DNA of 64,000 nucleotides from Escherichia virus TH55: the sequence record MT446421.1; one strand, 5' to 3'. Each line of letters starts with the position of its first letter. Within the stretch, counting starts at the first letter, position 1. A program made the position numbers and the translations under genes. The notes under the pieces were generated by a model. It worked only from the letters and a program-made list of their open reading frames with translations, had not been told where the DNA came from and did not search any database. Of the stretch, positions 1,213 to 41,008 are shown piece by piece.

Positions 1213-3026
1213 TGGTGTTTAACCCTATGCATGATTTCTTTATTTTTGCCGAGATTAAATCCACGTTCGTTCGGATTTCCCAAATAACCGCAAGTTCTTC
1301 TTATTGTGTTCATCTTTTTAGGGTCAGTTTCTCCACAAATAGAACAAACAAATCCGTTTTCAGTAGGAGTCATTTCATGGGTACTTCCACACGTAAAACA
1401 TTTATCTACTGGCATATTAACACCAAAATAATCTAAATGTTGCGCGGCATAATCCCATACAGCCTCAAGACCTTTTAAGTTATTTTTCATATCAGGAAGT
1501 TCAACATAAGAAATGTGACCACCTGTCGCAATGAAATGATATGGGGCTTCGCGAGAAATCTTTTCAAACGGAGTAATATTTTCTTCTACTGAAACGTGGA
1601 AACTGTTAGTGTACCATCCTTTATCGGTAACATCTTTTACACTTCCATATTTTTCAGTATCAAGTTTACAGAAGCGATAACAAAGGTTTTCAGCAGGTGT
1701 AGAATACAAACTAAAAGCAAAACCGGTTCTTTCAGTCCACTGCTTAAGACGAGCATTCATTTTAGTTAAAATTTCTTGCCCAATATCACGACCGGCAAGA
1801 ATATTCAATTCGTGAATACCAATGTATCCCAAAGACACTGAACTTCTACCGTTTTTAAATAACTCAATTATATCATCATCAGGTTTAAGACGAACCCCGA
1901 ATGCACCTTCTTGGTAAAGAATAGGAGCAACAGTCGCTTTAACTCCTTTTAAAGAACTAATTCTACACATCAAAGCTTCAAAACACAAATCCATTCGCTC
2001 ATTGAACAATTCGATAAATTTCTGTTCATTGAACTGTGTTCCAATATAAGAATCTAACGCAATGCGAGGAAGATTCAGTGTTACAACACCAAGATTATTA
2101 CGTCCATCAAGAATTTCATTACCAGTCGAATCTTTCCATACGCCCAAGAAACTACGGCAACCCATTGGAGAAACAGGAATAGATGAACCAGTGATAGCTT
2201 TATTGTTCTTAGCTGAAATAATATCAGGATACATTCTTTTGCTTGCACACTCTAGAGCAAGCTGCTTAATATCATAGTTCGGGTCGTCTTTATAAAGATT
2301 AACACCTTCTTCAACGAACATAACAAGTTTAGGGAAAATAGGAGTTATCCCATCGCGACCAAGACCTTTGATACGATTTTTCAGAATTGCTTTCTGAATC
2401 ATTCGTTCAGTCCAGTCAGTTCCCGTGCCAAACGTAATTGTCACAAAAGGCGTTTGCCCATTTGAACTAAAGAGCGTATTTACTTCATATTCATAAGCTT
2501 GGAATGCATCGTATACGTCTTTTTCTGTTTTAGATTGGGCATAATTCAATGCATCAGTGATTTGCCATTTTTCTGCATCTTCAATATGTTTTGCGTATGT
2601 ACGTTTAACATAAGGAGAAAATACTTTGTCTACATTAGCAAAAGTCGTTCCGCCATATTGGTGAGAAGCAACCTGTGCAGTAATTTGTGCCATAATTGCA
2701 GTAGCAACACCGATTGATTTAGGAGTTTCAATCTGTGCATTACCAAGCTTAAATCCGTTCTCAAGCATTCCTTTTAAATCTACTAAACAGCAATTAGTAA
2801 ATGGAAGAGCAGGGGAATAATCAATATCATGGAAATGAATAATTCCACTTTCATGTGCTTTCATAATAAAAGACGCGACCATATTTTTGGCAATGTGTTT
2901 AGATACAATACCAGCCATAAGGTCCCGTTGAGTTGGAAAAACACGAGAATCTTTATTAGCATTCTCGTTTAAAAGGTCTTTATTAGTTTTATGAATCAAT
3001 CCTTCAATTTCGTTTTCAATTGTCAT
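1209..3026 (-). CDS. nrdD: anaerobic ribonucleoside-triphosphate reductase large subunit
   Basis: 605 aa; C-terminal glycyl-radical motif RTCGYLG and zinc ribbon CFTCG...CSICG; length equals T4 NrdD; ORF uninterrupted. Confidence 0.93.
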   Translation of the reverse strand: MTIENEIEGLIHKTNKDLLNENANKDSRVFPTQRDLMAGIVSKHIAKNMVASFIMKAHESGIIHFHDIDYSPALPFTNCCLVDLKGMLENGFKLGNAQIETPKSIGVATAIMAQITAQVASHQYGGTTFANVDKVFSPYVKRTYAKHIEDAEKWQITDALNYAQSKTEKDVYDAFQAYEYEVNTLFSSNGQTPFVTITFGTGTDWTERMIQKAILKNRIKGLGRDGITPIFPKLVMFVEEGVNLYKDDPNYDIKQLALECASKRMYPDIISAKNNKAITGSSIPVSPMGCRSFLGVWKDSTGNEILDGRNNLGVVTLNLPRIALDSYIGTQFNEQKFIELFNERMDLCFEALMCRISSLKGVKATVAPILYQEGAFGVRLKPDDDIIELFKNGRSSVSLGYIGIHELNILAGRDIGQEILTKMNARLKQWTERTGFAFSLYSTPAENLCYRFCKLDTEKYGSVKDVTDKGWYTNSFHVSVEENITPFEKISREAPYHFIATGGHISYVELPDMKNNLKGLEAVWDYAAQHLDYFGVNMPVDKCFTCGSTHEMTPTENGFVCSICGETDPKKMNTIRRTCGYLGNPNERGFNLGKNKEIMHRVKHQ

Positions 3027-21282: not shown

Positions 21283-21741
21283 TTATCCGAAAATTTGAGT
21301 CATTACCTTGTACATCGATTTGCCCATCACATACTGCCATTGACTCGGTTTAATCAGAGCAAATGCATCGAACTCTGGAACCGAACTACCATCCGGGAAG
21401 GTATGATAGGCAGAGCATTTACTATGTCTAAACTGCTCATGCTCAACCGGAACCGTGTACAAAAACAGGTGAAGATTTTTGTTATCTGAATAACGGAACT
21501 CACCCAGGTCCTTTAAGAATGCCGGGTCGTATTGGGTAAACCCGGTTTCTTCTTCGGTTTCACGGATAGCCGCTTCAATCGGGGATTCACCAGCTTCAAC
21601 ATGGCCCTTAGGGATGTCCCATTTATGTGCAGGCATACCTGGTTTACGAGAACAAGTCACACGACCCATGAATAACTCTTTATCTTCAGTCATGAAAATA
21701 ATGCCAGCAGATAATTCTTTCACCTTGTTTTTCTTACTCAT
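21283..21741 (-). CDS. nudE: Nudix hydrolase
   Basis: From M12 about 152 aa; Nudix box GHVEAGESPIEAAIRETEEETG; position downstream of e as T4 nudE. Confidence 0.8.
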   Translation of the reverse strand: MSKKNKVKELSAGIIFMTEDKELFMGRVTCSRKPGMPAHKWDIPKGHVEAGESPIEAAIRETEEETGFTQYDPAFLKDLGEFRYSDNKNLHLFLYTVPVEHEQFRHSKCSAYHTFPDGSSVPEFDAFALIKPSQWQYVMGKSMYKVMTQIFG

Positions 21742-21970
21742 CGTCACGTTTCCATGATTGGTTAAAAATATCACTCATTAAAAATTCAAGTCTATTTTCC
21801 AATGAAGGGCTTTCACTACTAGAAACTTGAACCATGTAGTCGGAAATAGGTCGGAACATATCCAAGTCAGTTTCTAAATCATCTTTGATTTTCTCTTCTG
21901 ATGTACCTGTATCATAGGAATACAGATAAGAATCACATGACTCTGATTTAATATAAATTGCAATACTCAT
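21734..21970 (-). CDS. hypothetical acidic protein (78 aa)
   Basis: Minus-strand ORF, ATGA coupling. Confidence 0.45.
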   Translation of the reverse strand: MSIAIYIKSESCDSYLYSYDTGTSEEKIKDDLETDLDMFRPISDYMVQVSSSESPSLENRLEFLMSDIFNQSWKRDDE

Positions 21971-22554
21971 TTACGGCATTCCTCAATAAAGGAGTTCAAT
22001 GTATTTTTCTTAGTGATATCGTCATATACCTTTTTAACTTTAGAAATACGAAAAGGTACTTCAATAACCATAGTCCATAAAAATGATGCAATAAGTCCAG
22101 CAAGAGCAGTAGAAAAGCACGCACCCATTACAGCTACGGGTGCTTCATTTTTGCCTGTCAAGAAAAACCACAGGAATGGTAAAAATAAGATTCCAGCCCA
22201 GGCATAAAACCTGGAACAAATTAACTTATCAAATTCATCACTCCAGGTACGAAATCCATATTTCTTGCTATAAGAAATTAATGGGTCGGGTGTCTGTTCT
22301 TTGAGTGGTTCTGGTTGATACCCATTAATGATATATCCCATTTTATATTCCTTAATTAAAAGCTCTTTCACATGACGATTGCATCGCGACCAATCAACAT
22401 TTTCCACCTTGATTCCTTCATCACCATCATCAAGGTTCGCCCAATATTTTTTGGTAATCATAAATTCATCTCTTGATACAATTATACCTGCATTTTCCGA
22501 CCGACGGATGAAGTTTACATCAACACCCATACAACCCGGCTCATAAAGGGCCAT
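21967..22554 (-). CDS. membrane protein with C-terminal FIEECRK tail (195 aa)
   Basis: Two TM helices in C-terminal half; C-terminus ...NTLNSFIEECRK shared with three other ORFs here. Confidence 0.5.
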   Translation of the reverse strand: MALYEPGCMGVDVNFIRRSENAGIIVSRDEFMITKKYWANLDDGDEGIKVENVDWSRCNRHVKELLIKEYKMGYIINGYQPEPLKEQTPDPLISYSKKYGFRTWSDEFDKLICSRFYAWAGILFLPFLWFFLTGKNEAPVAVMGACFSTALAGLIASFLWTMVIEVPFRISKVKKVYDDITKKNTLNSFIEECRK

Positions 22555-23240
22555 TACCAGCCCTCCATAGGGAATTCCAGATATACTTGAGCATTAACGC
22601 GGATTTCATTTGTAATCTTTTTAACACGGTCGGTATTACGAGACACACGACCAAACCAGCGCCAACCGTTACTTACTGCGCGAGAACCTGTATGCCATGT
22701 CTGCCAATCAAACTGGAGCAACGTGCGGTCAGGAGCATCCCACTTGGCTAATTCATTGGACTCAATTTTTTCCAGAACTTCTTTATGCCACTGACGATAG
22801 ATAAGTTCGCCTTCAGGAATCTGACTAAATTGTGCAGTTCCGGTTGCAAAATAAGTAGGACACACATCAGCGTTAACAAGACCAAGAATATGTTCAGAAT
22901 GGTAACGAGGATTATCATAATCAGGTTGCCCTGCAGTAATAAAGTGTTGACCAACCGGAATATCCGGGCGTGGTACATCGTCATGGTGATAACCTGGGAT
23001 AGCAGGATACCAACCAGGCATCAGCATATGAACCCGAGAATCAAATACAACCTGGTCGGTGTTCCAATCATCCGGCAGACTCATAATAAAGCTACGAGTA
23101 ATAGGACCGCCATTGTCAAAAGCGAAAGCCAATGAGCTGTTGAAGAACATAGTTTCGTTTTTGATTTTATCATTAGAAATTTTACCAGCGAAACTGCCTA
23201 CTGCATGAGCTTGAGAATTAAAAGTTTTTGGACCGTTCAT
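22554..23240 (-). CDS. hypothetical protein (228 aa)
   Basis: Minus-strand ORF; His/Trp/Pro-rich; possible weak early promoter upstream. Confidence 0.5.
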   Translation of the reverse strand: MNGPKTFNSQAHAVGSFAGKISNDKIKNETMFFNSSLAFAFDNGGPITRSFIMSLPDDWNTDQVVFDSRVHMLMPGWYPAIPGYHHDDVPRPDIPVGQHFITAGQPDYDNPRYHSEHILGLVNADVCPTYFATGTAQFSQIPEGELIYRQWHKEVLEKIESNELAKWDAPDRTLLQFDWQTWHTGSRAVSNGWRWFGRVSRNTDRVKKITNEIRVNAQVYLEFPMEGW

Positions 23241-23299
23241 AATATTTTCCTCATTGATTGTGGGACCATTGTGTCATAGTCCCACTTGGATGTACACAC

Positions 23300-24280
23300 T
23301 TATTTTTCGAAAGGACGAATTAAATGTTGGTTAGCCTTGAAACGTTTAACATAGTCTTCGTGACCCAGGGTGTTGTACATATTAACCACTTCCTGGTAAT
23401 GTTCCCAGGCATACTCGCGGAACCATCCAGAAGTAATGGAGGTGCAGACTTTTTCCAGCGCAATATGGAAGCTCACGGATGGAGAGATATTGAACTCATT
23501 GGGAACCTGCGAACGCTCCAGAGCGAGTACACATGCTTCTTCATAAACCCCTGCCAGTTTAATAATCTCAGGGAGTGCTTCAAATTTTTCACGCGAGGTC
23601 ATAACTTCTGAATCATCTTTCATATAGAACTTATATGCAGGCTTATCAGCAAGCGCCACGGCCTCGTGGATGGAGTCATGGTCAAGGGTATAGATTGTAT
23701 CATTAAAGAAAGTTTTCTTGCCCACGTCTAGTTTAGGGTGACTATATGACAATGTTTCTGCCTGGCGCTGCAGCATGATTTTATGCAGTTCGTCATTAAG
23801 AACAACCCCCTTATTGCGAAGGTAATTAATATGACTCATGGTCTTCAGGAAGAATGGATTGTTCTTCAGGTAACGATGAGACAATTTAATTGCCAGACAA
23901 ATATCAGGAGTCGCCCAGTAAAAACCAGATAGACGGTCTTTCTGAATATTTGCCTTCGCATATTTGAGTAAACGATAACTGGAGGTAAAATCTTCCTCTT
24001 GTAGCTCATCAGTCAGCTCACGAACACTTGTCAATGCGCGGACGATGTACGCTTCAAAATAGGTTTCTTTACCATTGTGCATACATTTAAAAGCTTGAAC
24101 ATCTGGGTTATCCACATGCACATGTTGTCCCATCATCTGGGTTTTAAAGCTATTCCAGGAGCCCTGGTCAGCGATAAAGTCCCAATCAGAGTTTTCAATT
24201 TTCTGACTTTCAATCAGACCAGCGTTATGTAATGCACGAGAACCAATAACTAACATCATAATATTTTCCTCAAATAACAC
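23300..24280 (-). CDS. hypothetical protein (326 aa), weak nucleotidyltransferase-like N-terminus
   Basis: N-terminal LVIGSRALHNAG...SDWDF loosely resembles GS...DxD nucleotidyltransferase motif (spacing atypical). Confidence 0.5.
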   Translation of the reverse strand: MLFEENIMMLVIGSRALHNAGLIESQKIENSDWDFIADQGSWNSFKTQMMGQHVHVDNPDVQAFKCMHNGKETYFEAYIVRALTSVRELTDELQEEDFTSSYRLLKYAKANIQKDRLSGFYWATPDICLAIKLSHRYLKNNPFFLKTMSHINYLRNKGVVLNDELHKIMLQRQAETLSYSHPKLDVGKKTFFNDTIYTLDHDSIHEAVALADKPAYKFYMKDDSEVMTSREKFEALPEIIKLAGVYEEACVLALERSQVPNEFNISPSVSFHIALEKVCTSITSGWFREYAWEHYQEVVNMYNTLGHEDYVKRFKANQHLIRPFEK

Positions 24281-24511
24281 TTAAATTTCAGCAGCAGAGA
24301 TATTAGATTCATCTATCATCTCAGAGGCGGACCCCTTAACGATAGGAACCAATTTGCCATAGAGGTCTTCATTATAAGGGTCGTTGATACAGTGTGCATC
24401 TTCAAAACGAACACCGTAATCAGACTTCTTATAAACGAGACCGTAAATCTTTGTAAACTTAGCACGACTAATTTTTACAGGCTCATCAGTCATTGGGGCG
24501 TAATACCACAT
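24281..24511 (-). CDS. hypothetical protein (76 aa)
   Basis: Preceded by early promoter 24540-24568 and SD GAGGA. Confidence 0.45.
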   Translation of the reverse strand: MWYYAPMTDEPVKISRAKFTKIYGLVYKKSDYGVRFEDAHCINDPYNEDLYGKLVPIVKGSASEMIDESNISAAEI

Positions 24512-24539
24512 AATGTTTTCCTCATTAGTTGACGAAATA

Positions 24540-24568
24540 ATGATACTACATTTCTTTAGGCTTGTACA
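24540..24568 (-). promoter_or_regulatory. T4-type early promoter
   Basis: Minus strand: -35 TGTACA, 17 nt, -10 TATCAT; upstream of 24281-24511. Confidence 0.55.
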
Positions 24569-24614
24569 CTAAATTTCTGCACATAAGTCCTCCTATCACA
24601 TCCTTGTGATTAAA

Positions 24615-24842
24615 TTATTTTCCTAACGAAATACGAGTAGGTTTTTTACCGAAATATTCTTCATAGGAACCATCTAAACGACCTGCTTTAGACCGACAGT
24701 ATGAATCATACTTTTTGTAATAAGTCAACTCTGTATTGTAACGTGGATGTCTATCAGCCATAATAATACTTAACGGCCAGCCTTTAGCATAATCGATAAG
24801 ACCATTTATTTTACGAATATATCTTTTCTTTAATTTTAGCAT
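24615..24842 (-). CDS. hypothetical basic protein (75 aa)
   Basis: Minus-strand ORF. Confidence 0.4.
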   Translation of the reverse strand: MLKLKKRYIRKINGLIDYAKGWPLSIIMADRHPRYNTELTYYKKYDSYCRSKAGRLDGSYEEYFGKKPTRISLGK

Positions 24843-25069
24843 GAGCTTGGGTACCAGATTTTACCATCGGCACGAGCAACGAAGGTGCGACCAGCTTCTT
24901 CACCATAACAAGAGCTGTTCAACCAGTCTTCAAGACGGACTTCGCCGTCATAATCATCAAGCTCGACACCGAAATCTTGAGCAGAAGCCATATCTTTTAC
25001 TTTCTTATACAGCGCGGCCAGTTCAAGGGCAGCTTTTTCTAATTCAGCATGTTCAACAGCAGTAGTCAT
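24836..25069 (-). CDS. small acidic protein, C-terminal W-x-SS-C family member A (77 aa)
   Basis: Ends ...GKIWYPSSC; first of five tandem paralogues. Confidence 0.5.
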   Translation of the reverse strand: MTTAVEHAELEKAALELAALYKKVKDMASAQDFGVELDDYDGEVRLEDWLNSSCYGEEAGRTFVARADGKIWYPSSC

Positions 25070-25078
25070 TTTATCACC

Positions 25079-25309
25079 TTAGCAAGTCATAGAGGAGTTA
25101 AACCAGAAACCCTGGCCATCATTGATGCCGTAATCACTGCGAATCCAGTCATATTCTTCATATTCTTCGCTAGAAGCCGGAATATAACGTTGGAAACGGT
25201 CTGCGGCGTGTAAATTAAAAATTTCACCGGTTTTATCGGCTAACTGCTCACCTTCACAGATTAGTGCACGGATTTGGTCTTCAATTTCTTTAACAGTTTT
25301 AGTAGTCAT
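25079..25309 (-). CDS. small acidic protein, W-x-SS-x-C family member B (76 aa)
   Basis: Ends ...GFWFNSSMTC; helical acidic N-terminus similar to neighbours. Confidence 0.55.
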   Translation of the reverse strand: MTTKTVKEIEDQIRALICEGEQLADKTGEIFNLHAADRFQRYIPASSEEYEEYDWIRSDYGINDGQGFWFNSSMTC

Positions 25310-25318
25310 TTTATAACC

Positions 25319-25516
25319 TTAGCATTCATAAGAGGAGGACACCCAAGAGGTACCGCTAATAGTAATACAACCATTATAAAGCGTAATATGTTGTTCCAGA
25401 TTACGCTGACCGTCAATATAGATATCAGCTTCTTCGCGTTCTTCTTTGCAAATCTGGATAACGTTTTCAATAGCTGCCGCGGCAGTACGGATTGCACAAT
25501 CTAATTCACGAGACAT
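25319..25516 (-). CDS. small acidic protein, W-V-SSS-x-E-C family member C (about 65 aa)
   Basis: Ends ...TSWVSSSYEC; start placed at second ATG preceded by AAGGA. Confidence 0.55.
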   Translation of the reverse strand: MSRELDCAIRTAAAAIENVIQICKEEREEADIYIDGQRNLEQHITLYNGCITISGTSWVSSSYEC

Positions 25517-25524
25517 ATAATTCC

Positions 25525-25806
25525 TTAACATTCAGAAGAGGAGGACACCCAACCGCCATTTTCTAGGTCGGTTGTGTAGTCATGAGTATTAACAATAGCC
25601 CATTCAGGATGACCATCTTCTTCCCAATGAGCAAGGTCAGCTTTCAAGGCGCCAGGAGAATAATAGTCACCGCCCATACCGCGAGCAGGGTATATATTAA
25701 AATGAGTCTCATATTTGTCTGCAATTTCCTCAGCACGGCGAATGGCTTCATGGATTTCTTTTACTGCGGCCAGAAGCTCTGGTTGGTTATGGTTATCATT
25801 CATCAT
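25525..25806 (-). CDS. small acidic protein, W-V-SSS-x-E-C family member D (about 93 aa)
   Basis: Ends ...GGWVSSSSEC; ORF-track frame (160 aa) trimmed to M68 because upstream gene ends at 25808. Confidence 0.55.
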   Translation of the reverse strand: MMNDNHNQPELLAAVKEIHEAIRRAEEIADKYETHFNIYPARGMGGDYYSPGALKADLAHWEEDGHPEWAIVNTHDYTTDLENGGWVSSSSEC

Positions 25807-25807
25807 A

Positions 25808-26098
25808 TTAGCACATCTCAGAAGAGGAAACCCAGGCACCAACAGTAACAACGCCGTTTTCAACTCGCCCGCCGTTGTTTTCAATATGGTGAGCGAACCA
25901 TTCGGAACATTCATAACCAACTGGATGATATGTACGGCCGGTGCCGTAATCACCAGTGCTGAATTCGATACCATATTCATCTGCGATTTCTTCACAGTGT
26001 TTTTCAATTTCAGAGGTCTTATTTAGAAGAGAATAGATGGCTTTTTCTGCAGATTTCTCATCATAATACTTGGGGATAGCAATTTCAATTTTATTCAT
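25808..26098 (-). CDS. small acidic protein, W-V-SSS-x-E-C family member E (96 aa)
   Basis: Ends ...GAWVSSSEMC; shares EEIADxY...F block with member D. Confidence 0.55.
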   Translation of the reverse strand: MNKIEIAIPKYYDEKSAEKAIYSLLNKTSEIEKHCEEIADEYGIEFSTGDYGTGRTYHPVGYECSEWFAHHIENNGGRVENGVVTVGAWVSSSEMC

Positions 26099-26448
26099 GA
26101 TTTACATTCCTTAATAAAGGTTTCAAGGTCATTACGTTTTGTTTTGTCTAGGAACTTATTATACTCAGCCATTGCCAAAGCGTATCTCTTTCGGCTGGGA
26201 GCATTCACGGCATTTGTGTGACAGATATCATACACAACCGGGATAAAATAAGCCACAACAGCCGGAGCAATTATCATAAAGAAGCCCATCTCAATAGGCA
26301 TGACTCCCTCGATTGCAGCCATAACCGTGGTCATTACCAGACCAACCAAACCACCAAGCATGGCAGTGACAATCCCCAATAATAAATTGCCGCCAATATC
26401 ATATTCAGCCAATTGATAAACATGTGATGCAAGACTAGGCCGTTCCAT
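26095..26448 (-). CDS. membrane protein with C-terminal FIKECKS tail (about 117 aa)
   Basis: Two TM helices; C-terminus ...NDLETFIKECKS; start at M32 to limit overlap. Confidence 0.45.
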   Translation of the reverse strand: MERPSLASHVYQLAEYDIGGNLLLGIVTAMLGGLVGLVMTTVMAAIEGVMPIEMGFFMIIAPAVVAYFIPVVYDICHTNAVNAPSRKRYALAMAEYNKFLDKTKRNDLETFIKECKS

Positions 26449-26794
26449 TACGAACCTCCTTAATAAATTCTTCGGCACATTTAATTTTGTGCTCTTCTTG
26501 TAGGGAAACACATTTTTGTTCCCACTCTTTAACTCGTCCACGGTATCCTTTATTCATATGATTTTGATGCCACACATTTATCAAAATCATACTCAGGACT
26601 GTAATAAAAGGAGCTGCGATTATTAGCGCCCAGGCAACTCCAACACTAATGATACTCATATCCCCACAAAGCACCATCATTATAACCCCAACGATGCATA
26701 TGGACAGGGCCCCAAATGCTGGCATAAGGTCTTTATCAATTTTGTCTGCGTATACAAATTTTTCTGGTTTACTTGGCAGATATAACGTTCGCAT
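26435..26794 (-). CDS. membrane protein with C-terminal FIKEVR tail (about 119 aa)
   Basis: Two TM helices; C-terminal ...CAEEFIKEVRNGTA; start ambiguous. Confidence 0.45.
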   Translation of the reverse strand: MRTLYLPSKPEKFVYADKIDKDLMPAFGALSICIVGVIMMVLCGDMSIISVGVAWALIIAAPFITVLSMILINVWHQNHMNKGYRGRVKEWEQKCVSLQEEHKIKCAEEFIKEVRNGTA

Positions 26795-27341
26795 TTTGAA
26801 CCCCTTTAGCATATTCACGACATTCAGCAATAAAACGATTAAGCTTACGTTTCCGTTTACGACCCTCTAATGTATACTCAGCCGCCAAATCAAGAAGCTC
26901 ATCTTTATCATAATTTTTAATATCAGTATAAGTTGGGCGGCGGTCAACCATTCCAAAGTGGTCACCATTTTCCAACATCAAATAACACACCAAATGGTCA
27001 TCATCGTCCGCATTAATAAGCTGCTTATAATCACTTGGTTCATTTAACGCATACACAGAATAACTCAGCCCAGCGAATTCCACTCGTTGAATACCCAGAT
27101 TTACGTCAATAATTTCCAAGGCATCTGCAAAAGAAAGGTCTTCAGCTAAAGCAAAAATAAAAGGCAATTTGGTAGTATCGCCGCGACTTGTTGTTCTTCT
27201 TAAGAAATCATTGGAATAGCCCAAGTCGCGGCGGATTCTATAAAGAACTGTGTTAGTTTCAGTGGCAAGACCACTACCGCCAAACCATTCCACATTTGAT
27301 AAAAGATTATCATATAAAGTCATAATTTTCTCCTCTCCCAA
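26769..27341 (-). CDS. hypothetical protein with C-terminal FIAECR motif (190 aa)
   Basis: Soluble; C-terminal ...RKRKRKLNRFIAECREYAK... Confidence 0.5.
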   Translation of the reverse strand: MGEEKIMTLYDNLLSNVEWFGGSGLATETNTVLYRIRRDLGYSNDFLRRTTSRGDTTKLPFIFALAEDLSFADALEIIDVNLGIQRVEFAGLSYSVYALNEPSDYKQLINADDDDHLVCYLMLENGDHFGMVDRRPTYTDIKNYDKDELLDLAAEYTLEGRKRKRKLNRFIAECREYAKGVQNANVISAK

Positions 27342-27365
27342 TTAGGGGGCTTTGCCCCCTTTATC

Positions 27366-27959
27366 TTACTTAAGTGAATTGATGTATTCTTCAATGTCAG
27401 CGGACGTGGTATCCACACCAACCTGTGGACCTTTGAAGGTTTCAACACGCATCAAGGTGTCTTCAATATCAATCTTAGTCAATGCAGCGATTTCAACAAC
27501 ATCATCTGCAGTCGCAATACCCAGGGCAGATACCTTACGGGTTTCGCGGATGTATTCCAGTTTAACAGCTAGTTCCTGACGAGAATCATCCAGCTCTTTA
27601 ACTTTCAATTTAATTTCATTACGCATTTCAACATAATCGTCTGCCTTCTTACGAAGTTGTTTAGCAGTGCGACGATACAGGAGACCCAGTTTAGCATGGA
27701 CCTGGACATCAGCACCATCAGCAATCAGTTTGCGGATTTCACGCTCTTTTGAGGCGGCGAGTTGGTCTTTTTCATTCGCTAACTCGCGGATGCGTTTTTC
27801 TTCATTAACAGACTTAACGTGGGCGGTCTGGAGCTCAGTAATCTTGTCAATCAGGGTAGACGCCGCTTGAGTATATTGGTCTTCAATAGACAGGTTTTTT
27901 GCCATTGCAGTACCCAGTTTGGAGCGGATGAATTCAACAAGTTTCTTTAAAGTATTCAT
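27366..27959 (-). CDS. coiled-coil protein (197 aa), possibly PspA/IM30-like
   Basis: Almost entirely heptad-rich helix; resemblance to PspA is impressionistic only. Confidence 0.5.
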
Positions 27960-28031
27960 GGTATTTCCTTCAGTTGGTTAATGTTTTATTATCCAGGGAA
28001 CATACTATCATGTTCCCATTAAAGCACTAAT

Positions 28032-28337
28032 TTAGATTTTGTTTTCCTGCACACCATAGTAAAGTTCATCAGACACAATATCCAGGATGCGGCGAACATA
28101 TTCATCATGGTATTGGCAGTCAAAATCAAATGCAACAGTAGTTTCCGCTTCACGAGTGAATTTAACTTGCACATTCAGGTGATTAACAACGTTAGTTAAT
28201 TTATCAGTAAAGAACTCTTTTGCTACCGCCTGTTGGACTTGTACTTTGAACTTGGTGTTGCGAATCATATTTTCAGCAGATGCGAAATTACCAGTTTTAT
28301 CAAAGTCAACAAGCGCCAGGTTGATGATGAATTTCAT
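28032..28337 (-). CDS. hypothetical protein (101 aa)
   Basis: Preceded by promoter-like element 28379-28407 and SD GGAG. Confidence 0.5.
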   Translation of the reverse strand: MKFIINLALVDFDKTGNFASAENMIRNTKFKVQVQQAVAKEFFTDKLTNVVNHLNVQVKFTREAETTVAFDFDCQYHDEYVRRILDIVSDELYYGVQENKI

Positions 28338-28378
28338 TTTATTCTCCAGTGTTTTATTTGGTAACTCAGTATGGAATC

Positions 28379-28407
28379 ATTATGCCTTAAAGCAGGGGGC
28401 TTGTATA
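28379..28407 (-). promoter_or_regulatory. T4-type early promoter-like element
   Basis: Minus strand: -10 CATAAT plus conserved leader; -35 TATACA (weaker); adjacent G5/C8 hairpin 28395-28415. Confidence 0.45.
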
Positions 28408-28423
28408 CCCCCCCCTTTTTGAA

Positions 28424-28867
28424 TTAAATTTCAAATTCTTTGCGGAAGTTGGAAGCATAAGACTGAACTGATGCTTTGTTGAACCCAAACTCACGCACAA
28501 TCATATCAATAACAGCTCTGCGAGCAGCACCATTAGACATATTAACAGTTTTGAACATATCATAGCATAAATCTTTGTTGCTCATACCGGAGCGTTTAGG
28601 TGCCTTACGTTCAGCTTTTGGTTCAGCTTTAGGAGTAGGTTTAACTTCTGGTTTAACCTGTCCATCATTCAGACCTTTAAAAATTTTACCTGCCAGAGTT
28701 GCCAGTTTAGCAGCTTCGCCACGAGTGATACCAAATACTGCCGGGTTAAATGAAATACCTTCAGCTGTCAGACGTTTGAAGAACATACGGGCTGCGGATT
28801 GTGCTTCAGCTTCAGAAGAGTTGTTTAATGCCAGTTTAACGTACTTAACCAGTTTTGAAGTTTTCAT
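28424..28867 (-). CDS. hypothetical protein, paralogue pair member 1 (about 147 aa)
   Basis: Start at M18 (MKTSKL) downstream of promoter 28910-28938; C-terminal block NGAARRAVIDMIVREFGFNKASVQSYASNFRKEF shared with 28951-29376. Confidence 0.5.
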   Translation of the reverse strand: MKTSKLVKYVKLALNNSSEAEAQSAARMFFKRLTAEGISFNPAVFGITRGEAAKLATLAGKIFKGLNDGQVKPEVKPTPKAEPKAERKAPKRSGMSNKDLCYDMFKTVNMSNGAARRAVIDMIVREFGFNKASVQSYASNFRKEFEI

Positions 28868-28909
28868 TTTATTATCCCGTTTGTTTATTTGGTAACTCAG
28901 TATGGGATA

Positions 28910-28938
28910 ATTATACATTATCCCACCTGGAAGTAAAA
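28910..28938 (-). promoter_or_regulatory. T4-type early promoter-like element
   Basis: Minus strand: -35 TTTTAC, 17 nt, -10 TATAAT plus conserved leader. Confidence 0.45.
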
Positions 28939-28950
28939 CACTTTTCTCAA

Positions 28951-29376
28951 TTATTTTTGAGCTTTGCGGAAGTTGGAAGCATATGACTGAACAACAGTCT
29001 TTTTGATATCATGGGTGTTAACCAGAACATCAATCAGAGCGCGACGAGCTGCACCATCTGCCATATCAATTTCTGCAAATGCCTGGAAGCAAATGTCACG
29101 AGCATTACCAGATTTTGACTGGATTTTTTCTTCTTTAACTTCTTCAATTGGGAATTCAATCATTTCAGCTTGGATTAATTCAATGATAGATTCTTTTGAC
29201 TGTTTGGTGTTTACCTTCAGTTCAGAATTAAGGGACTTGGCGATGGCAACAATCTGGGTTGAAGTCAGATGAATAAGTGCATCTTCACGAATGCAGATTT
29301 CACATACTTCATCGGCAACCATTTTGTTGGTGATGCGGGTAACAGAGAATGCAGAGGTCAGGGTCAGGAAGTTCAT
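28951..29376 (-). CDS. hypothetical protein, paralogue pair member 2 (about 141 aa)
   Basis: Start at M28 downstream of promoter 29428-29456; C-terminal DGAARRALIDVLVNTHDIKKTVVQSYASNFRKAQ. Confidence 0.5.
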   Translation of the reverse strand: MNFLTLTSAFSVTRITNKMVADEVCEICIREDALIHLTSTQIVAIAKSLNSELKVNTKQSKESIIELIQAEMIEFPIEEVKEEKIQSKSGNARDICFQAFAEIDMADGAARRALIDVLVNTHDIKKTVVQSYASNFRKAQK

Positions 29377-29427
29377 TTTATTTCTCCAAAGTTTTGTTTG
29401 ATTCAGTGTGTAACTCAGTATGGAATC

Positions 29428-29456
29428 ATTATGCATCCAGTCAATTCGGATGTACA
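29428..29456 (-). promoter_or_regulatory. T4-type early promoter
   Basis: Minus strand: -35 TGTACA, 17 nt, -10 CATAAT; follows terminator 29495-29516. Confidence 0.6.
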
Positions 29457-29494
29457 CTACTTTTTGAAGAAAATTTCAAATTTATTCGGGGTAT

Positions 29495-29516
29495 AAAAAA
29501 GCCCGCAATGCGGGCT
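29495..29516 (-). terminator. rho-independent terminator
   Basis: Minus-strand RNA AGCCCGC-AUU-GCGGGCU followed by U6. Confidence 0.65.
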
Positions 29517-29517
29517 G

Positions 29518-30072
29518 TTAGTTCTTATAAAAGCGGAACGGATTTATATGAAAGGCGAGCATAGCCTTAGGGATTGGTCGGGACAGAAGGCTCTTGAGCT
29601 TCCAACCACAATAAACGCGCAGATAAAAGGTGATTCCACCGACCTTGAGATAAGGAACAGAAGCAAAAACACCCCAGGCATTATCCGTCCACATCCAGAG
29701 CCATCCGTGATGAGCTTTATCCGGGGAACCGGATTCAACATCAGGATTGCCTTTATAATGGAATTCTGAATTGCAATCACGACCGAGCTTGTGGTAAGCA
29801 AAATTGTATGCTTTGTTTCGCCAGAGCCAAGCTACTCGTTGGAAGTAAACACCTAACGGCCATTTTCGGATTTTTGACCAACGTTTGACATGACCCCGGT
29901 CACCATCAATCGGATTATCATAAGTCATCATCCAATCAAACCCGAACGGAAGTTTACCAGTCTTTTTATTATAGAATGGAACTACAAATGGAGCCAGGAT
30001 AACGGCCAGAATCATGGAGATAAAATCCAGTGGAACTAACAGAATCCAACTCAAATATTTTAACAGTTTCAT
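29518..30072 (-). CDS. membrane-anchored protein (about 184 aa)
   Basis: Start at M27 (MKLLKYLSWILLVPL...) because a terminator lies at 30095-30124 inside the longer ORF-track frame; N-terminal TM; Trp-rich. Confidence 0.5.
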   Translation of the reverse strand: MKLLKYLSWILLVPLDFISMILAVILAPFVVPFYNKKTGKLPFGFDWMMTYDNPIDGDRGHVKRWSKIRKWPLGVYFQRVAWLWRNKAYNFAYHKLGRDCNSEFHYKGNPDVESGSPDKAHHGWLWMWTDNAWGVFASVPYLKVGGITFYLRVYCGWKLKSLLSRPIPKAMLAFHINPFRFYKN

Positions 30073-30094
30073 ACGTTTCTCTTTAGTTGATTTA

Positions 30095-30124
30095 TAAAAA
30101 AGCCCCAACCTTTCGGAAGGGGCT
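30095..30124 (-). terminator. rho-independent terminator
   Basis: Minus-strand RNA AGCCCC...GGGGCU stem with internal loop followed by U6; between 30162 stop and ATG at 30072. Confidence 0.55.
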
Positions 30125-30161
30125 ATACCTTGTCGGGGTTCCACCTGCAAGGCAAGTGTTC

Positions 30162-30545
30162 TTATCCGCGAGCGAATGCCATTGCAGCGCGTTCGTTAGC
30201 ACGGTCGGTGATGTTCAAGAATTTATCACGAGCGATTTCGATTGGAGCACCAACCCAGTCAGCAGCACCATTACCTGGAGACTGTTTAGGGCGAACCATA
30301 TAAGTTGAAACTTTGGAACCGGCTAGTTTGGCACCAGGTGCCGCGGCATTTTTAACGTCTTTAGCTTTGATGCCAAACCCAGTTACGATACCCCAAGAAA
30401 CGCCATTAACTGGTTTCTTGAACATAACACGGTCACCAATTGAAACACCGGCTTTTTCTGGAGCCACTAAAGAAAATTTACCAGCTTCAGTCAGTACGGA
30501 TTCGGTGATGGTATTGCGATTTAAAAATTCTGCATATGTAAGCAT
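30162..30545 (-). CDS. putative capsid-targeted (internal-protein-like) protein (about 127 aa)
   Basis: N-terminus MLTYAEFLNRNTITE resembles CTS (MKTYQEF..E); minus-strand TATAAATA at 30576-30583; start could be 30557. Confidence 0.5.
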   Translation of the reverse strand: MLTYAEFLNRNTITESVLTEAGKFSLVAPEKAGVSIGDRVMFKKPVNGVSWGIVTGFGIKAKDVKNAAAPGAKLAGSKVSTYMVRPKQSPGNGAADWVGAPIEIARDKFLNITDRANERAAMAFARG

Positions 30546-30575
30546 TTTGTTTTCCATTATTAGGGTTGTTGTTAA

Positions 30576-30583
30576 TATTTATA
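30576..30583 (-). promoter_or_regulatory. late promoter TATAAATA
   Basis: Exact late consensus on minus strand just upstream of CTS-like gene 30162-30545. Confidence 0.5.
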
Positions 30584-30590
30584 TTCCATA

Positions 30591-30650
30591 GTACCGGATG
30601 CACCATCCGCTCGGATTTCTCATACTACCGGACGCACCGTCCGCTCTGGA
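30591..30650. repeat. tandem pair of 34-bp units each forming a 6-bp hairpin
   Basis: TACCGGATGCACCATCCGCTCGGA / TACCGGACGCACCGTCCGCTCTGGA; stems CGGATG-CAC-CATCCG and CGGACG-CAC-CGTCCG differ by a compensatory T-A to C-G change. Confidence 0.55.
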
Positions 30651-30781
30651 AAAACTCCGTAAAAGGGTGCGCCGTTTCAGCTGTGATATAAGGGGGCATC
30701 AACAAATCGTAAAGATTTATTAATGCCAGTCCTTAAACAGGGAACTTCAGTCCGACGACTTACCGGTAGCGACCCGGTTTC

Positions 30782-31021
30782 TCATTCAATTGTAATAGCT
30801 AATTTGACTTTAACAACCTTATAATTGGAATCAAGGTCATTGAATTCCATAAAATTTGTTGCTAATCTGCGAGTCGGGAAACTTAGATATTTATTATGCT
30901 CAGGTGGAGCGGTTAATGCAAACCATGGGACTTGTTTATCATTTTCATCAAACTCATCAAAGCTATAAACCAACTCGTTGTTGGTTATATCCATAACTGC
31001 ATATGATTCACTAATAACCAT
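30782..31021 (-). CDS. hypothetical acidic protein (about 79 aa)
   Basis: ORF trimmed to M16 so it does not overlap tRNA-Arg. Confidence 0.4.
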   Translation of the reverse strand: MVISESYAVMDITNNELVYSFDEFDENDKQVPWFALTAPPEHNKYLSFPTRRLATNFMEFNDLDSNYKVVKVKLAITIE

Positions 31022-31036
31022 AATATCCTCGGTAAT

Positions 31037-31113
31037 TGGTCGGGGTGGTGGGATTCTAACCCACAACCTACGGTTTAGAAGACCGTTGCTCTATACAATT
31101 GAGCTACACCCCG
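31037..31113 (-). tRNA. tRNA-Arg (anticodon UCU)
   Basis: Hand-folded cloverleaf: 7-bp acceptor CGGGGTG/CACCCCG, D-stem GCTC/GAGC, anticodon stem ACGGT/ACCGT with loop CUUCUAA, T-stem GTGGG/CCCAC, encoded CCA; T-loop is UUAGAAU (A at conserved C56 position). Confidence 0.75.
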
Positions 31114-31189
31114 GGTGGCCCCATCCGGACTTGAACCGGAAACCTGCCAGTTATGAGCCGGATGCTCTAACCAATTGAGCTACAGGGCC
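31114..31189 (-). tRNA. tRNA with CAU anticodon (Met, or Ile if lysidine-modified)
   Basis: Hand-folded: acceptor GGCCCTG/TGGGGCC (two G-U pairs), D-stem GCTC/GAGC, anticodon loop CUCAUAA, T-arm TCCGG-TTCAAGT-CCGGA; abuts tRNA-Arg with no spacer. Confidence 0.75.
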
Positions 31190-39269: not shown

Positions 39270-41008
39270 TTAATATGTCAGATAGTGTAAGTTGGTTCGT
39301 CGGTGTTGTCGAAGACCGAATGGACCCACTTCAACAAGGTCGTGTTCGTGTTCGTGTATGGGGTATGCATCCATATGAGAAATCGCAAGGGCCTGTAAAA
39401 GGTATCAGAACTGAAGACCTGCCCTGGATGTCTGTATTGATGCCAACATCATCTGCATCGGTTTCCGGTATTCAAACTGCCATGACTGGTATGGTCCCGG
39501 GTACTCAAGTATATGGTCACTTTTTGGACAAGTGGAAGCTCAATGGATTAGTCCTTGGTACATATGGCTCAGCATCAAGACAGAAGGCAAACACAACAGA
39601 AGGTTTTAGTGACCCCACAGGGCAATATCCGCTTTATGTGGGCAATGATGCTGCTGCGCTTAACCGAGGCGGTGAGGTCGGTTATGATGACACTTCAAAC
39701 GTAATACAAGATGCAAACACTGATGTAGGTATTAATCCAGACGGGTTAGATTTAAGCCAAGTTAAGCCTGATGATAATCCTAATTTCACAATAGAAAACA
39801 TGCTTCACCGCGATGAAGGTCTTCGTCTGAAAGTATATTGGGACACTGAAGGTTATCCTACTATAGGTATAGGACACTTAATTACACCACAACCTATTAG
39901 AGATATGAATCAGATAAACAAAATATTATCCAATCAAATAGGCCGTGAAGTTAAAGGTAACCCTGGTGCAATATCAATGGACGAGGCTTCTAAGTTATTC
40001 CAAGAAGACCTTAAAAAAGTCCAAAATGATATAGGTAGACATAGTGTTGTAGGTCCGGTTTACAATAAAGAAAACCGTTCAAGACAAATGGCTCTTGAAA
40101 ACATGGCTTTCCAAATGGGATTAGGTGGACTTGCTAAATTTAAAACGATGCTCGCTGCAATGTTAGCCGGAGATTATAAGAAAGCATTTGATGCCGCTCG
40201 TGATTCTGTATGGTTTAACCAAACTAAAGGCCGTGCATCAAGGGTATCAATGATTATCCTCACAGGTAACATGGAATCATATGGTATTATGGCCCCTAAA
40301 GAAAGGTCATTTAAAGGGCGTTCATACAGGATGATTCAAACCTTTGTGGCCCCTACAAATTCCGACCCGGCCGACCCGTGGACTCCAGAAGATACGAGGA
40401 TTCTATTTAAAGAGCCAGAATCAAGTTACAAAGGTGAATATCCTTACGTGCAGACAATGCAAACTGAAGGCGGTCATATTCAGGAATTTGATAACACTCC
40501 AGGACAAGAACGTTATCGACTGATTCATCCGACCGGTTCCTATGAGGAAGTTGCACCAGATGGTCGTAAGACTTCGAAGACGGTAGCCGATGGCTATTAT
40601 ATGACCCAGGGCGATTCAAGCACTTATGTTGGTGGGAATAATAAAGTCAACGTTGGTGGTGATGAAACCTATTACAATATGGCTAACGTTCGTCGTCAGA
40701 CCGATGGAAACGAAACCATCCATATTCGTGGTAACGAAGAGAAAACTGTAGAAGGTAATGGAACACTCAGAGTTAAAGGCAACGTTACTGTTATTGTTGA
40801 AGGAAATGCTGATGTTACTGTTAAGGGTGATGCGACTACCTTAGTAGAAGGTAATGAAACTCGCACGACTAATGGTAATTTAAACTGGACTGTAAATGGT
40901 ACCGTATCTTGGACTTGTGCAGGTGCTTGGTCCGAGACTATGGCTTCAATGAGTTCTATTGCATCTGGTCAATATACTATTGATGGTTCGAGGATTGACA
41001 TTGGCTAA
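39266..41008 (+). CDS. 5: baseplate hub + tail lysozyme (cell-puncturing device) gp5
   Basis: 580 aa; central lysozyme domain DEGLRLKVYWDTEGYPTIGIGHLIT; C-terminal VxGN beta-helix repeats. Confidence 0.92.
   Translation: MINMSDSVSWFVGVVEDRMDPLQQGRVRVRVWGMHPYEKSQGPVKGIRTEDLPWMSVLMPTSSASVSGIQTAMTGMVPGTQVYGHFLDKWKLNGLVLGTYGSASRQKANTTEGFSDPTGQYPLYVGNDAAALNRGGEVGYDDTSNVIQDANTDVGINPDGLDLSQVKPDDNPNFTIENMLHRDEGLRLKVYWDTEGYPTIGIGHLITPQPIRDMNQINKILSNQIGREVKGNPGAISMDEASKLFQEDLKKVQNDIGRHSVVGPVYNKENRSRQMALENMAFQMGLGGLAKFKTMLAAMLAGDYKKAFDAARDSVWFNQTKGRASRVSMIILTGNMESYGIMAPKERSFKGRSYRMIQTFVAPTNSDPADPWTPEDTRILFKEPESSYKGEYPYVQTMQTEGGHIQEFDNTPGQERYRLIHPTGSYEEVAPDGRKTSKTVADGYYMTQGDSSTYVGGNNKVNVGGDETYYNMANVRRQTDGNETIHIRGNEEKTVEGNGTLRVKGNVTVIVEGNADVTVKGDATTLVEGNETRTTNGNLNWTVNGTVSWTCAGAWSETMASMSSIASGQYTIDGSRIDIG

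Follow-up and report, generated by a model that had tools for sequence, protein, structure and literature searches.

The 64,000-nucleotide stretch of Escherichia virus TH55 analysed here (record MT446421.1; the window) carries, between the nudE gene and a pair of tRNA genes, an interval at positions 21775-31036 that is filled with small genes on the minus strand. The flanks are as follows:

21283..21741, minus strand: nudE, the conserved anchor on one side, 63% identical to T4 NudE and called a nudix hydrolase in the annotation of Escherichia phage UPEC07
31037-31113, minus strand: tRNA-Arg(TCT), the anchor on the other side, found by ARAGORN and Rfam (the pair at 31037..31189 scores 73.7 and 62.2 bits)
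31114-31189, minus strand: tRNA-Met(CAT), likewise found by ARAGORN and Rfam

The nudE open reading frame (ORF) proper ends at 21741 and its GTG-extended form at 21774. The original prediction, made on this DNA from its letters alone, had placed about 9.3 kb and about 22 genes between these flanks; the interval measures 9,262 bp and holds 21 minus-strand ORFs (g01-g21, with starts revised using relatives and the recurring Shine-Dalgarno pattern GGAgAAtAAA-ATG) together with one small RNA, a homologue of T4 rnaD. Most of the predicted inventory could be assigned to individual genes. The two motif families comprise five ORFs in tandem that end in W..SS..C and four ORFs that end in F[IV]x[ED]C[RK], the paralogous pair is g17/g18 (31% identity), the several membrane proteins are g02, g12, g13 and g19, all with transmembrane segments, and the coiled-coil protein is g15, a helical homologue of T4 e.6. 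Proteins resembling the capsid targeting sequence (CTS) type had been announced in the plural; one is present, g20, which is the only such ORF inside the interval.

In megablast searches, the interval matched Escherichia phage UPEC07 (MW250787; Gaprivervirus, Tevenvirinae) at 100% over its full length and other Gaprivervirus phages at 94-96%; altogether 694 phage records match, with at least 80% coverage in 19 of them. The G+C content is about 40% throughout, with no compositional island in the interval, and at E ≤ 1 the two tRNAs are the sole credible Rfam matches. The tRNA with the CAT anticodon is tRNA-Met here and tRNA-Ile2(cat) in the EAWsc9 record, and an extra tRNA-Asn lies between the Arg and Met genes in SP18, JS98, and dhaeg.

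We fetched the interval from 12 other phages and found nudE and tRNA-Arg as its flanks in all 13 phages compared. In relatives from Gaprivervirus, Dhakavirus, and Mosigvirus, it spans 8.1-9.7 kb with the same gene order: 8.6 kb in RB69 (21 ORFs), 9.0 kb each in JS98, dhaeg, and SP18, 9.5 kb in EAWsc9, 9.6 kb in CJ20 and MN01, 9.4 kb in phage 212, 9.7 kb in TH41, 9.1 kb in YenP8, and 8.1 kb in RZ. The common order runs g01, e.2, g03, g04, the W..SS..C array, e.3, e.4, e.5, and e.6, which in RB69 names corresponds to ORF130c (g01), e.2, ORF132c (g03), ORF134c (g04), ORF135c-139c (array), and e.3-e.6, followed by rnaD. The annotations of RB69 and JS98, two genomes published years ago, already list this order. 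The same interval with like anchors (8.6-9.0 kb) comprises ORF130c-ORF150c in RB69, orf118-orf136 in JS98, and gp128-gp150 in SP18. Judged by these alignments, the region is ordinary for RB69-, JS98-, and SP18-type phages, is already present in public genomes, and is not special in size. The description "greatly expanded" therefore applies in comparison with T4, whose interval was correctly described as a few kb of small ORFs (3.7 kb with the seven ORFs e.2-e.8 plus rnaC and rnaD), but not in comparison with RB69, JS98, SP18, and the other relatives. Differences from RB69, JS98, and SP18 are confined to particular genes: g16, g17, g18, and g21 are found in Gaprivervirus only, e.8 and the RB32-type ORF of JS98 are absent here, and g20 stands in place of rnaC in only five of the 13 phages compared.

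The part of the interval that is shared with T4 consists of e.2, e.3, e.4, and e.6 homologues plus rnaD, alike in order and strand. The protein-coding genes of this backbone are:

21967..22554, minus strand: g02, full-length homologue of T4 e.2, phrog_2203 membrane protein, ending in FIEECRK
26095-26448, minus strand: g12, homologue of T4 e.3
26435-26794, minus strand: g13, homologue of T4 e.4, overlapping its neighbours
26769-27323, minus strand: g14, in the position of T4 e.5
27366..27959, minus strand: g15, e.6 homologue, 75% identical to T4 e.6 over 197 aa, phrog_1203

The e.2 assignment was obtained with both blastp and tblastn, and transmembrane segments are predicted at about residues 116-168 of g02. 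In blastp comparisons with T4, g12 matches e.3 at 3e-9 and g13 matches e.4 at 2e-14, while g14 is alignable only at the C-terminal motif of e.5. This motif, [NEK]-F-[IV]-x-[ED]-C-[RK], occurs near the C-terminus of the e.2, e.3, e.4, and e.5-position proteins of this phage as well as of T4, and three of its four carriers are membrane proteins. An origin of the motif as a ribosome-binding site or other artefact at the DNA level is not supported, since its distance from the stop codon varies. The best-conserved gene of the interval is g15, which has a MotA-box-like site upstream (TGCTTTA-N12-TAGTAT, at about 28026-28002).

T4 lacks g01, g03-g11, and g16-g21 and keeps e.7, e.8, and rnaC, giving 3.7 instead of 9.3 kb. 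Its e.2 is cut by two in-frame stops (2482-2961, minus strand, of the 65000-75000 segment of NC_000866), and the "intergenic" gap between nudE and e.2 in T4 encodes the conserved C-terminus of full-length e.2, ...IWRMFIEMPWRLRRQQKIFDEKKYAQNLNNFITECRK (...NLNNFITECRK), ending beside nudE. Because e.2 is a truncated remnant there and the relatives hold 8.1-9.7 kb, T4 looks like a reduced form of the interval and an outlier among the phages compared.

Interspersed with the backbone is a block that is common to RB69 and JS98 and missing from T4:

21734..21970, minus strand: g01, 78 aa, pI (isoelectric point) 4.1, homologue of RB69 ORF130c, phrog_2900
22554..23240, minus strand: g03, putative Fe(II)/2-oxoglutarate oxygenase with a PhyH-like fold
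23300..24259, minus strand: g04, nucleotidyltransferase-fold protein with DUF7277 and DUF7275, predicted structure closest to MenT/AbiEii-type toxins
24615..24842, minus strand: g06, 75 aa, basic (pI 9.9), phrog_7065
24836..26098, minus strand: array of acidic paralogues, made up of g07 (24836-25069), g08 (25079-25309), g09 (25319-25516), g10 (25525-25806), and g11 (25808-26098)

The g01 gene is present in 12 of 12 non-T4 relatives, with substitutions concentrated at codon position 3; similarly, this position takes 87 of 115 substitutions in g06. Although the phage belongs to Gaprivervirus, its g03 is 98-100% identical to the JS98-type allele and only 77-79% identical to that of the SP18-type phages of its own genus, and we take this closeness as a sign of mosaic identity.

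The remaining genes belong to cassettes that come and go among close relatives: phages with 90-98% identity elsewhere differ in whether they carry g05, g08, g09, g16, g19, or g20. The cassettes and the elements that bound them are:

23241..23299, minus strand: predicted early promoter (TGTACA-N17-CACAAT, 23296-23268) with hairpin GTGGGAC..GTCCCAC, an insertion site
24273..24581, minus strand: g05 cassette, consisting of a predicted early promoter (24568-24540) and a 76-aa ORF (24281-24511)
28032..29438, minus strand: three Gaprivervirus-specific cassettes, g16 (28032-28337), g17 (28424-28867), and g18 (28951-29376)
29500..29516, minus strand: predicted intrinsic terminator after g19, a 7-bp GC stem followed by a T-run
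29518..30072, minus strand: g19, DUF7338 membrane protein (Pfam, 1e-62) with an N-terminal transmembrane segment

A generic sigma-70 scan showed no enrichment (34 hits versus 34.1), and the published T-even early consensus (PMC4122927) was used in its place. The resulting motif, T[GT]TAC[AT]-N16-17-[TC]A[TC][AC]AT, occurs 11 times in the window versus 1.2 times in shuffled sequences (about ninefold), with 10 of the 11 occurrences on the minus strand. Four lie in the interval, upstream of g03, g05, g17, and g18, and a TATACA variant precedes g16; each of these predicted promoters has a hairpin beside or across it. Hairpins of the terminator type number 18 against 9.3 expected. The early promoters and terminators of the original prediction were thus recovered as motif enrichments.

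Megablast alignments against 11 relatives located the points at which content changes. Breaks between 23253 and 23289-23297 were seen in JS98, SP18, dhaeg, phage 212, and RB69, each with a different extra ORF at this site. The g05 cassette is patchy and swapped as a unit, with breaks between 24272 and 24574-24597 in nine relatives. Ahead of g16, g17, and g18 lies a promoter/5' untranslated region (5'UTR) repeat of about 60 nt (28332-28389, 28862-28920, and 29372-29438; direct-repeat families D1 and D2), with the predicted promoters at 28407, 28937, and 29456. The break of the g16 cassette falls between 27995 and 28030-28336, and RZ lacks g16 exactly between 27995 and 28336; a 50-bp duplication (28865-28914) flanks an additional ORF in CJ20, YenP8, and MN01. 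Further downstream, g19 is patchy (present in JS98, absent from SP18 and phage 212), and the homology of the latter two ends at 29508, in the g19 terminator. The break between 30160 and 30666 has no early-promoter element and is bounded by a terminator segment and rnaD. Two further breakpoint events are unequal crossovers between paralogue ends and do not lie at promoter elements: g08 was lost between the 5' ends of g07 and g08, and g09 between the WVSSS..C-coding 3' ends of g09 and g10. As a separate observation, g17 and g18 encode proteins of low identity, yet share a 3' stretch of 31 nt that is 97% identical (28438-28468 and 28962-28992; VQSYASNFRK), which suggests gene conversion or a recombination site.

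The tRNA-proximal end of the interval contains three further features:

30162..30583, minus strand: g20 cassette, consisting of the late-promoter motif TATAAATA (30583-30576) and a 127-aa basic ORF (30162-30545)
30666..30785, minus strand: rnaD homologue (T4 species 2 small stable RNA), 88% identical to T4 rnaD over 121 nt
30782..31021, minus strand: g21, 79 aa, phrog_33509, with a GAGGA Shine-Dalgarno sequence 4 nt before the ATG

From its probable start at 30545, with the predicted late motif about 30 nt upstream, g20 has an N-terminus, MLTYAEFLNRNTITESVLTE, that resembles MKTYQEFLAESVLNE of the adjacent internal protein. Both contain [IL]-x-E sites (MLTYAEFLNRNTITE followed by SVLTE in g20, MKTYQEFLAE followed by SVLNE in the internal protein), and the window holds four M.TY.EF ORFs, g20 among them. 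The protein is basic (pI 9.9), codon position 3 accounts for all 34 of its 34 substitutions, and beyond the N-terminus, it matches no PHROG family. Similar to T4 Ip1, Ip2, and Ip3, g20 combines an N-terminal M-x-T-Y-x-E-F-[IL] followed by [IL]-x-E sites, a basic character, the late motif, and a location in the neighbourhood of ip and tRNA genes, whereas its sequence past the N-terminus is unrelated to theirs. We therefore consider g20 a credible candidate for a new internal (injected) protein, which might act in anti-restriction. The g20 and rnaC genes are mutually exclusive across the relatives: rnaC is absent from the window and present in RZ, phage 212, CJ20, SP18, and RB69, exactly the relatives without g20. 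Since, in addition, the T4 segment downstream of rnaC matches 30097-30160, the g20 cassette has taken the place of rnaC. In RB69, SP18, CJ20, phage 212, and RZ, rnaC (T4 species 1 RNA) is 98-99% identical to that of T4, while the neighbouring proteins are 60-75% identical, which suggests extreme constraint or recent exchange.

The rnaD homologue, overlooked in the original prediction, has a conserved fold with seven compensatory pairs in the alignment and consensus fold, and has no Rfam family. In T4 and JS98, it adjoins tRNA-Arg; here, g21 is inserted between the two, with substitutions distributed 11:5:20 over the codon positions, a modest third-position bias. The unrelated ORF150c of RB69 sits at the same junction, which appears to be a second insertion hot spot. 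In T4, the tRNA-Arg/rnaD junction lies within a single processed transcript.

In its anatomy, the interval matches the hyperplastic region (HPR) and promoter-early stem-loop (PeSL) cassette model (Arbiol 2010; Comeau 2014; PMC4122927, PMC2839356): it has a fixed map position, variable content, conserved flanks, five promoter matches with hairpins, and content boundaries at these elements. As in PeSL cassettes, T-even early promoters (TTTACW/TGTACA-N16-17-TAYWAT) and hairpins recur between small ORFs and coincide with the boundaries of insertions, deletions, and replacements, including a duplicated element that flanks an insert. In contrast, the hairpin here often overlaps the promoter and is not strictly upstream of it, and some events are crossovers between paralogous coding ends. 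The interval is very probably this phage's copy of the T-even e/nudE-to-tRNA hyperplastic region, composed of non-core, mostly early accessory genes drawn from small cassettes. The original label, a hyperplastic region of small early genes, was hence well chosen, with T4 homologues interspersed among cassettes bounded by promoters and hairpins. Three layers can be distinguished in it: a T4 backbone (e.2, e.3, e.4, the e.5-position gene, e.6, and rnaD); a block common to RB69 and JS98 but not T4 (g01 and g03-g11), with the acidic proteins and g04 at its heart; and genus- or strain-specific cassettes (g05, g08, and g16-g21). Content would change by recombination at the repeated promoter/5'UTR/hairpin elements of PeSL-type cassettes and also through unequal crossovers at the conserved ends that tandem paralogues share. 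The anatomy, the homologies, the recurrence of breakpoints, and the linkage of g04 to the acidic proteins are direct observations, while promoter activity, enzyme activities, and any part in host takeover or anti-defence are inferred. Several points weigh against this interpretation or its parts. The promoters and terminators are motif matches only, with the generic scan at chance level, and several breakpoints lie inside genes and not at promoter elements. Many of the 80 loci used below to establish the linkage of g04 come from related T4-like phages, so that part of this synteny is inherited and not independently maintained. Finally, the enzyme assignments for g03 and g04 derive from predicted folds whose Foldseek scores are modest (E about 1e-3, template-modelling (TM) scores of 0.33-0.5) and have no sequence-level match in Pfam enzyme families, PADLOC, or the PDB.

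A recent lineage-specific expansion, that is, a novel island whose very size is unusual, would fit the 2.5-fold length relative to T4 and the absence of g16, g17, g18, g20, g21, and partly g19 from RB69 and JS98. It is nevertheless most improbable and already largely refuted, as an interval of 8.1-9.7 kb with a common backbone lies at this position in RB69, JS98, SP18, and eight others, T4 itself shows loss (the truncated e.2 and a 3' remnant encoding NFITECRK), and hundreds of phages carry g04, g03, and members of the W..SS..C family. That the block might chiefly be an anti-defence arsenal is conceivable, and we view it with some doubt. The N-terminal targeting sequence of the internal-protein type, late-promoter motif, and basic pI of g20 would agree with such a role, given that T4 Ip1, Ip2, and Ip3 inhibit GmrSD-type restriction enzymes (PMC12373910); the acidic g01 and g07-g11 are similar, in charge only, to inhibitors that mimic nucleic acids; the strain-level presence and absence of cassettes fits arms-race turnover; and the nucleotidyltransferase fold of g04 is toxin-like. 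However, no protein of the block shows homology to any characterised anti-defence protein, and PADLOC returned nothing. Moreover, g03, g04, and e.6 are highly conserved and not fast-turning, and superinfection exclusion or lysis control would be equally possible roles for the membrane proteins e.2-e.4. Alignment with well-characterised T4-like phages, proposed along with the original prediction as its check, found gene content and order to be shared, but the shared genes have no assigned functions there (unknown in PHROGs, DUF domains only in Pfam). Taken as a hyperplastic region, the interval supports the view of the e/nudE-tRNA segment as a standard shuffling zone of T4-like phages for which T4 is a poor yardstick of size, and provides a map of backbone ORFs, exchangeable cassettes, and exchange points that is useful for phage engineering and the design of deletions.

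The lead with the widest reach within the interval is the pairing of g04 with the acidic array, which recurs across hundreds of large virulent phages. The g04 protein has 2,062 homologues, and 731 phage records match. Its model (predicted local distance difference test, pLDDT, of 89.6) has a predicted Pol-beta nucleotidyltransferase fold with a G[GS] motif and an invariant acidic triad (D25, D27, E69). In structure, the toxins MenT1, TglT, and MenT4 match best, closely followed by ANT(2'') and lincosamide nucleotidyltransferases. At the sequence level, g04 falls outside DUF1814/AbiEii: Pfam detects DUF7277 and DUF7275 only, and neither PADLOC nor a profile search of PDB sequences gave a match. 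Relatives are essentially absent from bacterial genomes, where they were found on only five contigs of metagenome-assembled genomes.

The proteins g07-g11 end in GxWxSS(x0-2)C, have pI values of 4.4-4.75, belong to phrog_899 and phrog_4882, and are the sole members of the W..SS..C family in the window. A profile search of 1.84 billion representatives retrieved 103 clusters of 65-143 aa; among the 101 with C-termini read, 93 end in W..SS(x0-2)C and 94 have Cys as the last residue. In alignments of the family, the Trp, the two Ser, and the terminal Cys are invariant, and the N-terminus is conserved and helical; the remainder varies. We then inspected 80 IMG/VR loci whose g04-type proteins are 39-97% identical to g04, including contigs of 350-370 kb. 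Within ±4 kb, these loci contain 207 W..SS..C ORFs, all 207 of which are on the same strand as and upstream of the g04-type gene, with none downstream or on the opposite strand. At least one lies within 1.5 kb of the g04-type gene in 70 of the 80 loci, in one to five copies. At the 52 loci with less than 60% identity to g04, nudE accompanies g04 at none, g03 at two, and e.6 at five, and no other gene of the window travels with it. W..SS..C ORFs are located directly upstream of the g04-type gene in 150-kb Klebsiella phages, a 230-kb Aeromonas phage, and Pseudomonas phage PspYZU05, while the other neighbours differ. Beyond T4-like phages, the layout recurs in Otagovirus phiPsa397 with four copies and in Phapecoctavirus Schickermooser with three; the module extends over Straboviridae, Stephanstirmvirinae, Otagovirus, and contigs of jumbo-phage size. 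In TH55, g05 and g06 separate the array from g04. In T4, scanned over bases 1-50000 and 65-75 kb, nrdC.1-nrdC.3 were considered as a candidate copy and rejected, since bases 1-50000 show no homology. The pairing is absent from the literature searches made, and its members bear DUF labels or no Pfam label.

The arrangement is reminiscent of MenAT1, in which MenT1 is neutralised by the 68-aa helical MenA1 encoded just upstream (PMC10435456). This likeness is best regarded as an analogy and not as membership. Compared with MenAT1 and AbiEii, g04 carries 190 additional aa that form a highly conserved helical domain (DUF7275) and shows no detectable sequence relationship; it is accompanied by one to five partners with a unique C-terminal GxWxSSSxxC, and its family is phage-restricted. 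In addition, the small proteins encoded upstream often occur in several copies and show no relation to MenA or AbiEi. We tentatively propose that the GxWxSSSxxC proteins and the DUF7277/DUF7275 nucleotidyltransferase-fold protein may form an undescribed, phage-restricted two-component system, in which the enzyme would be controlled by, or act on, the Ser/Cys motif of its partners, with RNA (tRNA) ends or host takeover as possible targets. If the module acts on tRNA or other RNA ends, or on partner proteins, it would represent a new mechanism of host takeover or counter-defence.

A more specific version, a toxin-antitoxin (TA)-like or enzyme-regulator pair in which g04 modifies RNA 3' ends, such as tRNA acceptor stems, and g07-g11 bind, gate, or retarget it, seems rather unlikely to us. 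It draws on the structural match to MenT1, TglT, and MenT4 with the invariant D25, D27, and E69, on the small helical proteins that occupy the antitoxin position in 70 of 80 loci from three phage lineages, on the MenA1 precedent (PMC10435456), and on RNA-ligase genes nearby in the Aeromonas locus and a Streptomyces phage, with tRNA genes in the region of the interval itself. These points are set against the lack of sequence membership in DUF1814/AbiEii, the large extra conserved helical domain of g04, up to five divergent small paralogues per enzyme, which is unlike a TA pair, and the two genes that intervene between array and g04 in this phage. Because the ANT(2'') and lincosamide enzymes score almost equally, a small-molecule substrate is equally possible for g04. 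Quite improbable, in our estimation, is that the small proteins are themselves substrates in a module akin to those for ribosomally synthesized and post-translationally modified peptides (RiPPs), with g04 modifying the C-terminal Ser-Ser...Cys by nucleotidylylation or by activation for dehydration or thioether formation. The pattern of invariant Trp, Ser, Ser, and C-terminal Cys in otherwise variable proteins (Cys being last in 94 of 101 clusters), the tandem multi-copy precursors with a conserved helical N-terminus, and the strict linkage to one enzyme gene are compatible with it. Yet a recognisable dehydratase, cyclase, or decarboxylase is missing, the acidic proteins of 65-143 aa are long for RiPP precursors, and the comparison is an analogy with lanthipeptide chemistry. 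With regard to the proposed two-component system, the neighbours of more distant relatives were also noted: in Streptomyces phage Beuffert, the gene for a DUF7275-only protein follows an RNA ligase gene at a distance of about 1 kb, and in the Aeromonas phage, a T4-type RNA ligase 1 precedes the g04-type gene by 4 kb. Such neighbours of g04/DUF7275 genes may hint at a function on RNA ends.

The second putative enzyme of the block, g03, is probably an Fe(II)/2-oxoglutarate (2OG) oxygenase of the double-stranded beta-helix fold, judging from its AlphaFold2 model (pLDDT 86). Its 50 best Foldseek matches in the PDB are nearly all 2OG oxygenases, with probabilities of 0.9-1.0 and E-values of about 1e-3, at TM scores of only about 0.35. 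Across 26 homologues, no variation was seen at H85/H86, D87/D88, H183, R198, or S200, residues that are located on or beside predicted strands and are candidates for the HxD/E...H iron triad and the 2OG-binding Arg. Of the 1,143 homologues, most exceed 68% identity; a single UniRef cluster is named phytanoyl-CoA dioxygenase, and for g03 itself, Pfam gave no match at E ≤ 0.1. A homologue that is 72% identical occurs, without g04 nearby, on plasmid-like Klebsiella contigs of 98-113 kb that also encode Rep3, RecA, an SbcCD-like nuclease, and a 5'-3' exonuclease; the putative oxygenase thus appears to circulate beyond T4-like phages. A linkage of g03 with g04 was considered and rejected, as g03 is beside g04 in only two of the 52 distant loci and stands alone on the Klebsiella contigs.

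Profile searches place every ORF except g20 in a PHROG family; one of these families bears a label, "membrane protein" for e.2, and the others are of unknown function. Among 20 ORFs searched, Pfam assigned only three DUF domains to two ORFs (DUF7277 and DUF7275 in g04, DUF7338 in g19); PADLOC gave no match for 10 ORFs, and phmmer and profile searches of PDB sequences with g03, g04, and g15 returned nothing meaningful. A literature search for DUF7275, DUF7277, DUF7338, RB69ORF134c, and phrog_899 found no papers, and the e.x genes are not mentioned in the HIDEN-SEQ and Ip2/Ip3 papers. Several names in the UPEC07 record (portal vertex protein for e.2, major capsid for g05 and g07, host specificity for e.6, and holin for g19) are not supported by any profile search. 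Its 151-aa "tail completion protein" (25525-25980) joins g10 to g11 sequence that is read out of frame, and its 41-aa plus-strand ORF (30598-30723) overlaps rnaD; neither has profile support. Outside the interval, at 39791-40282 on the plus strand, the window contains a second lysozyme-like sequence, 42% identical to T4 e, which from its position is presumably the lysozyme domain of the baseplate hub protein gp5.

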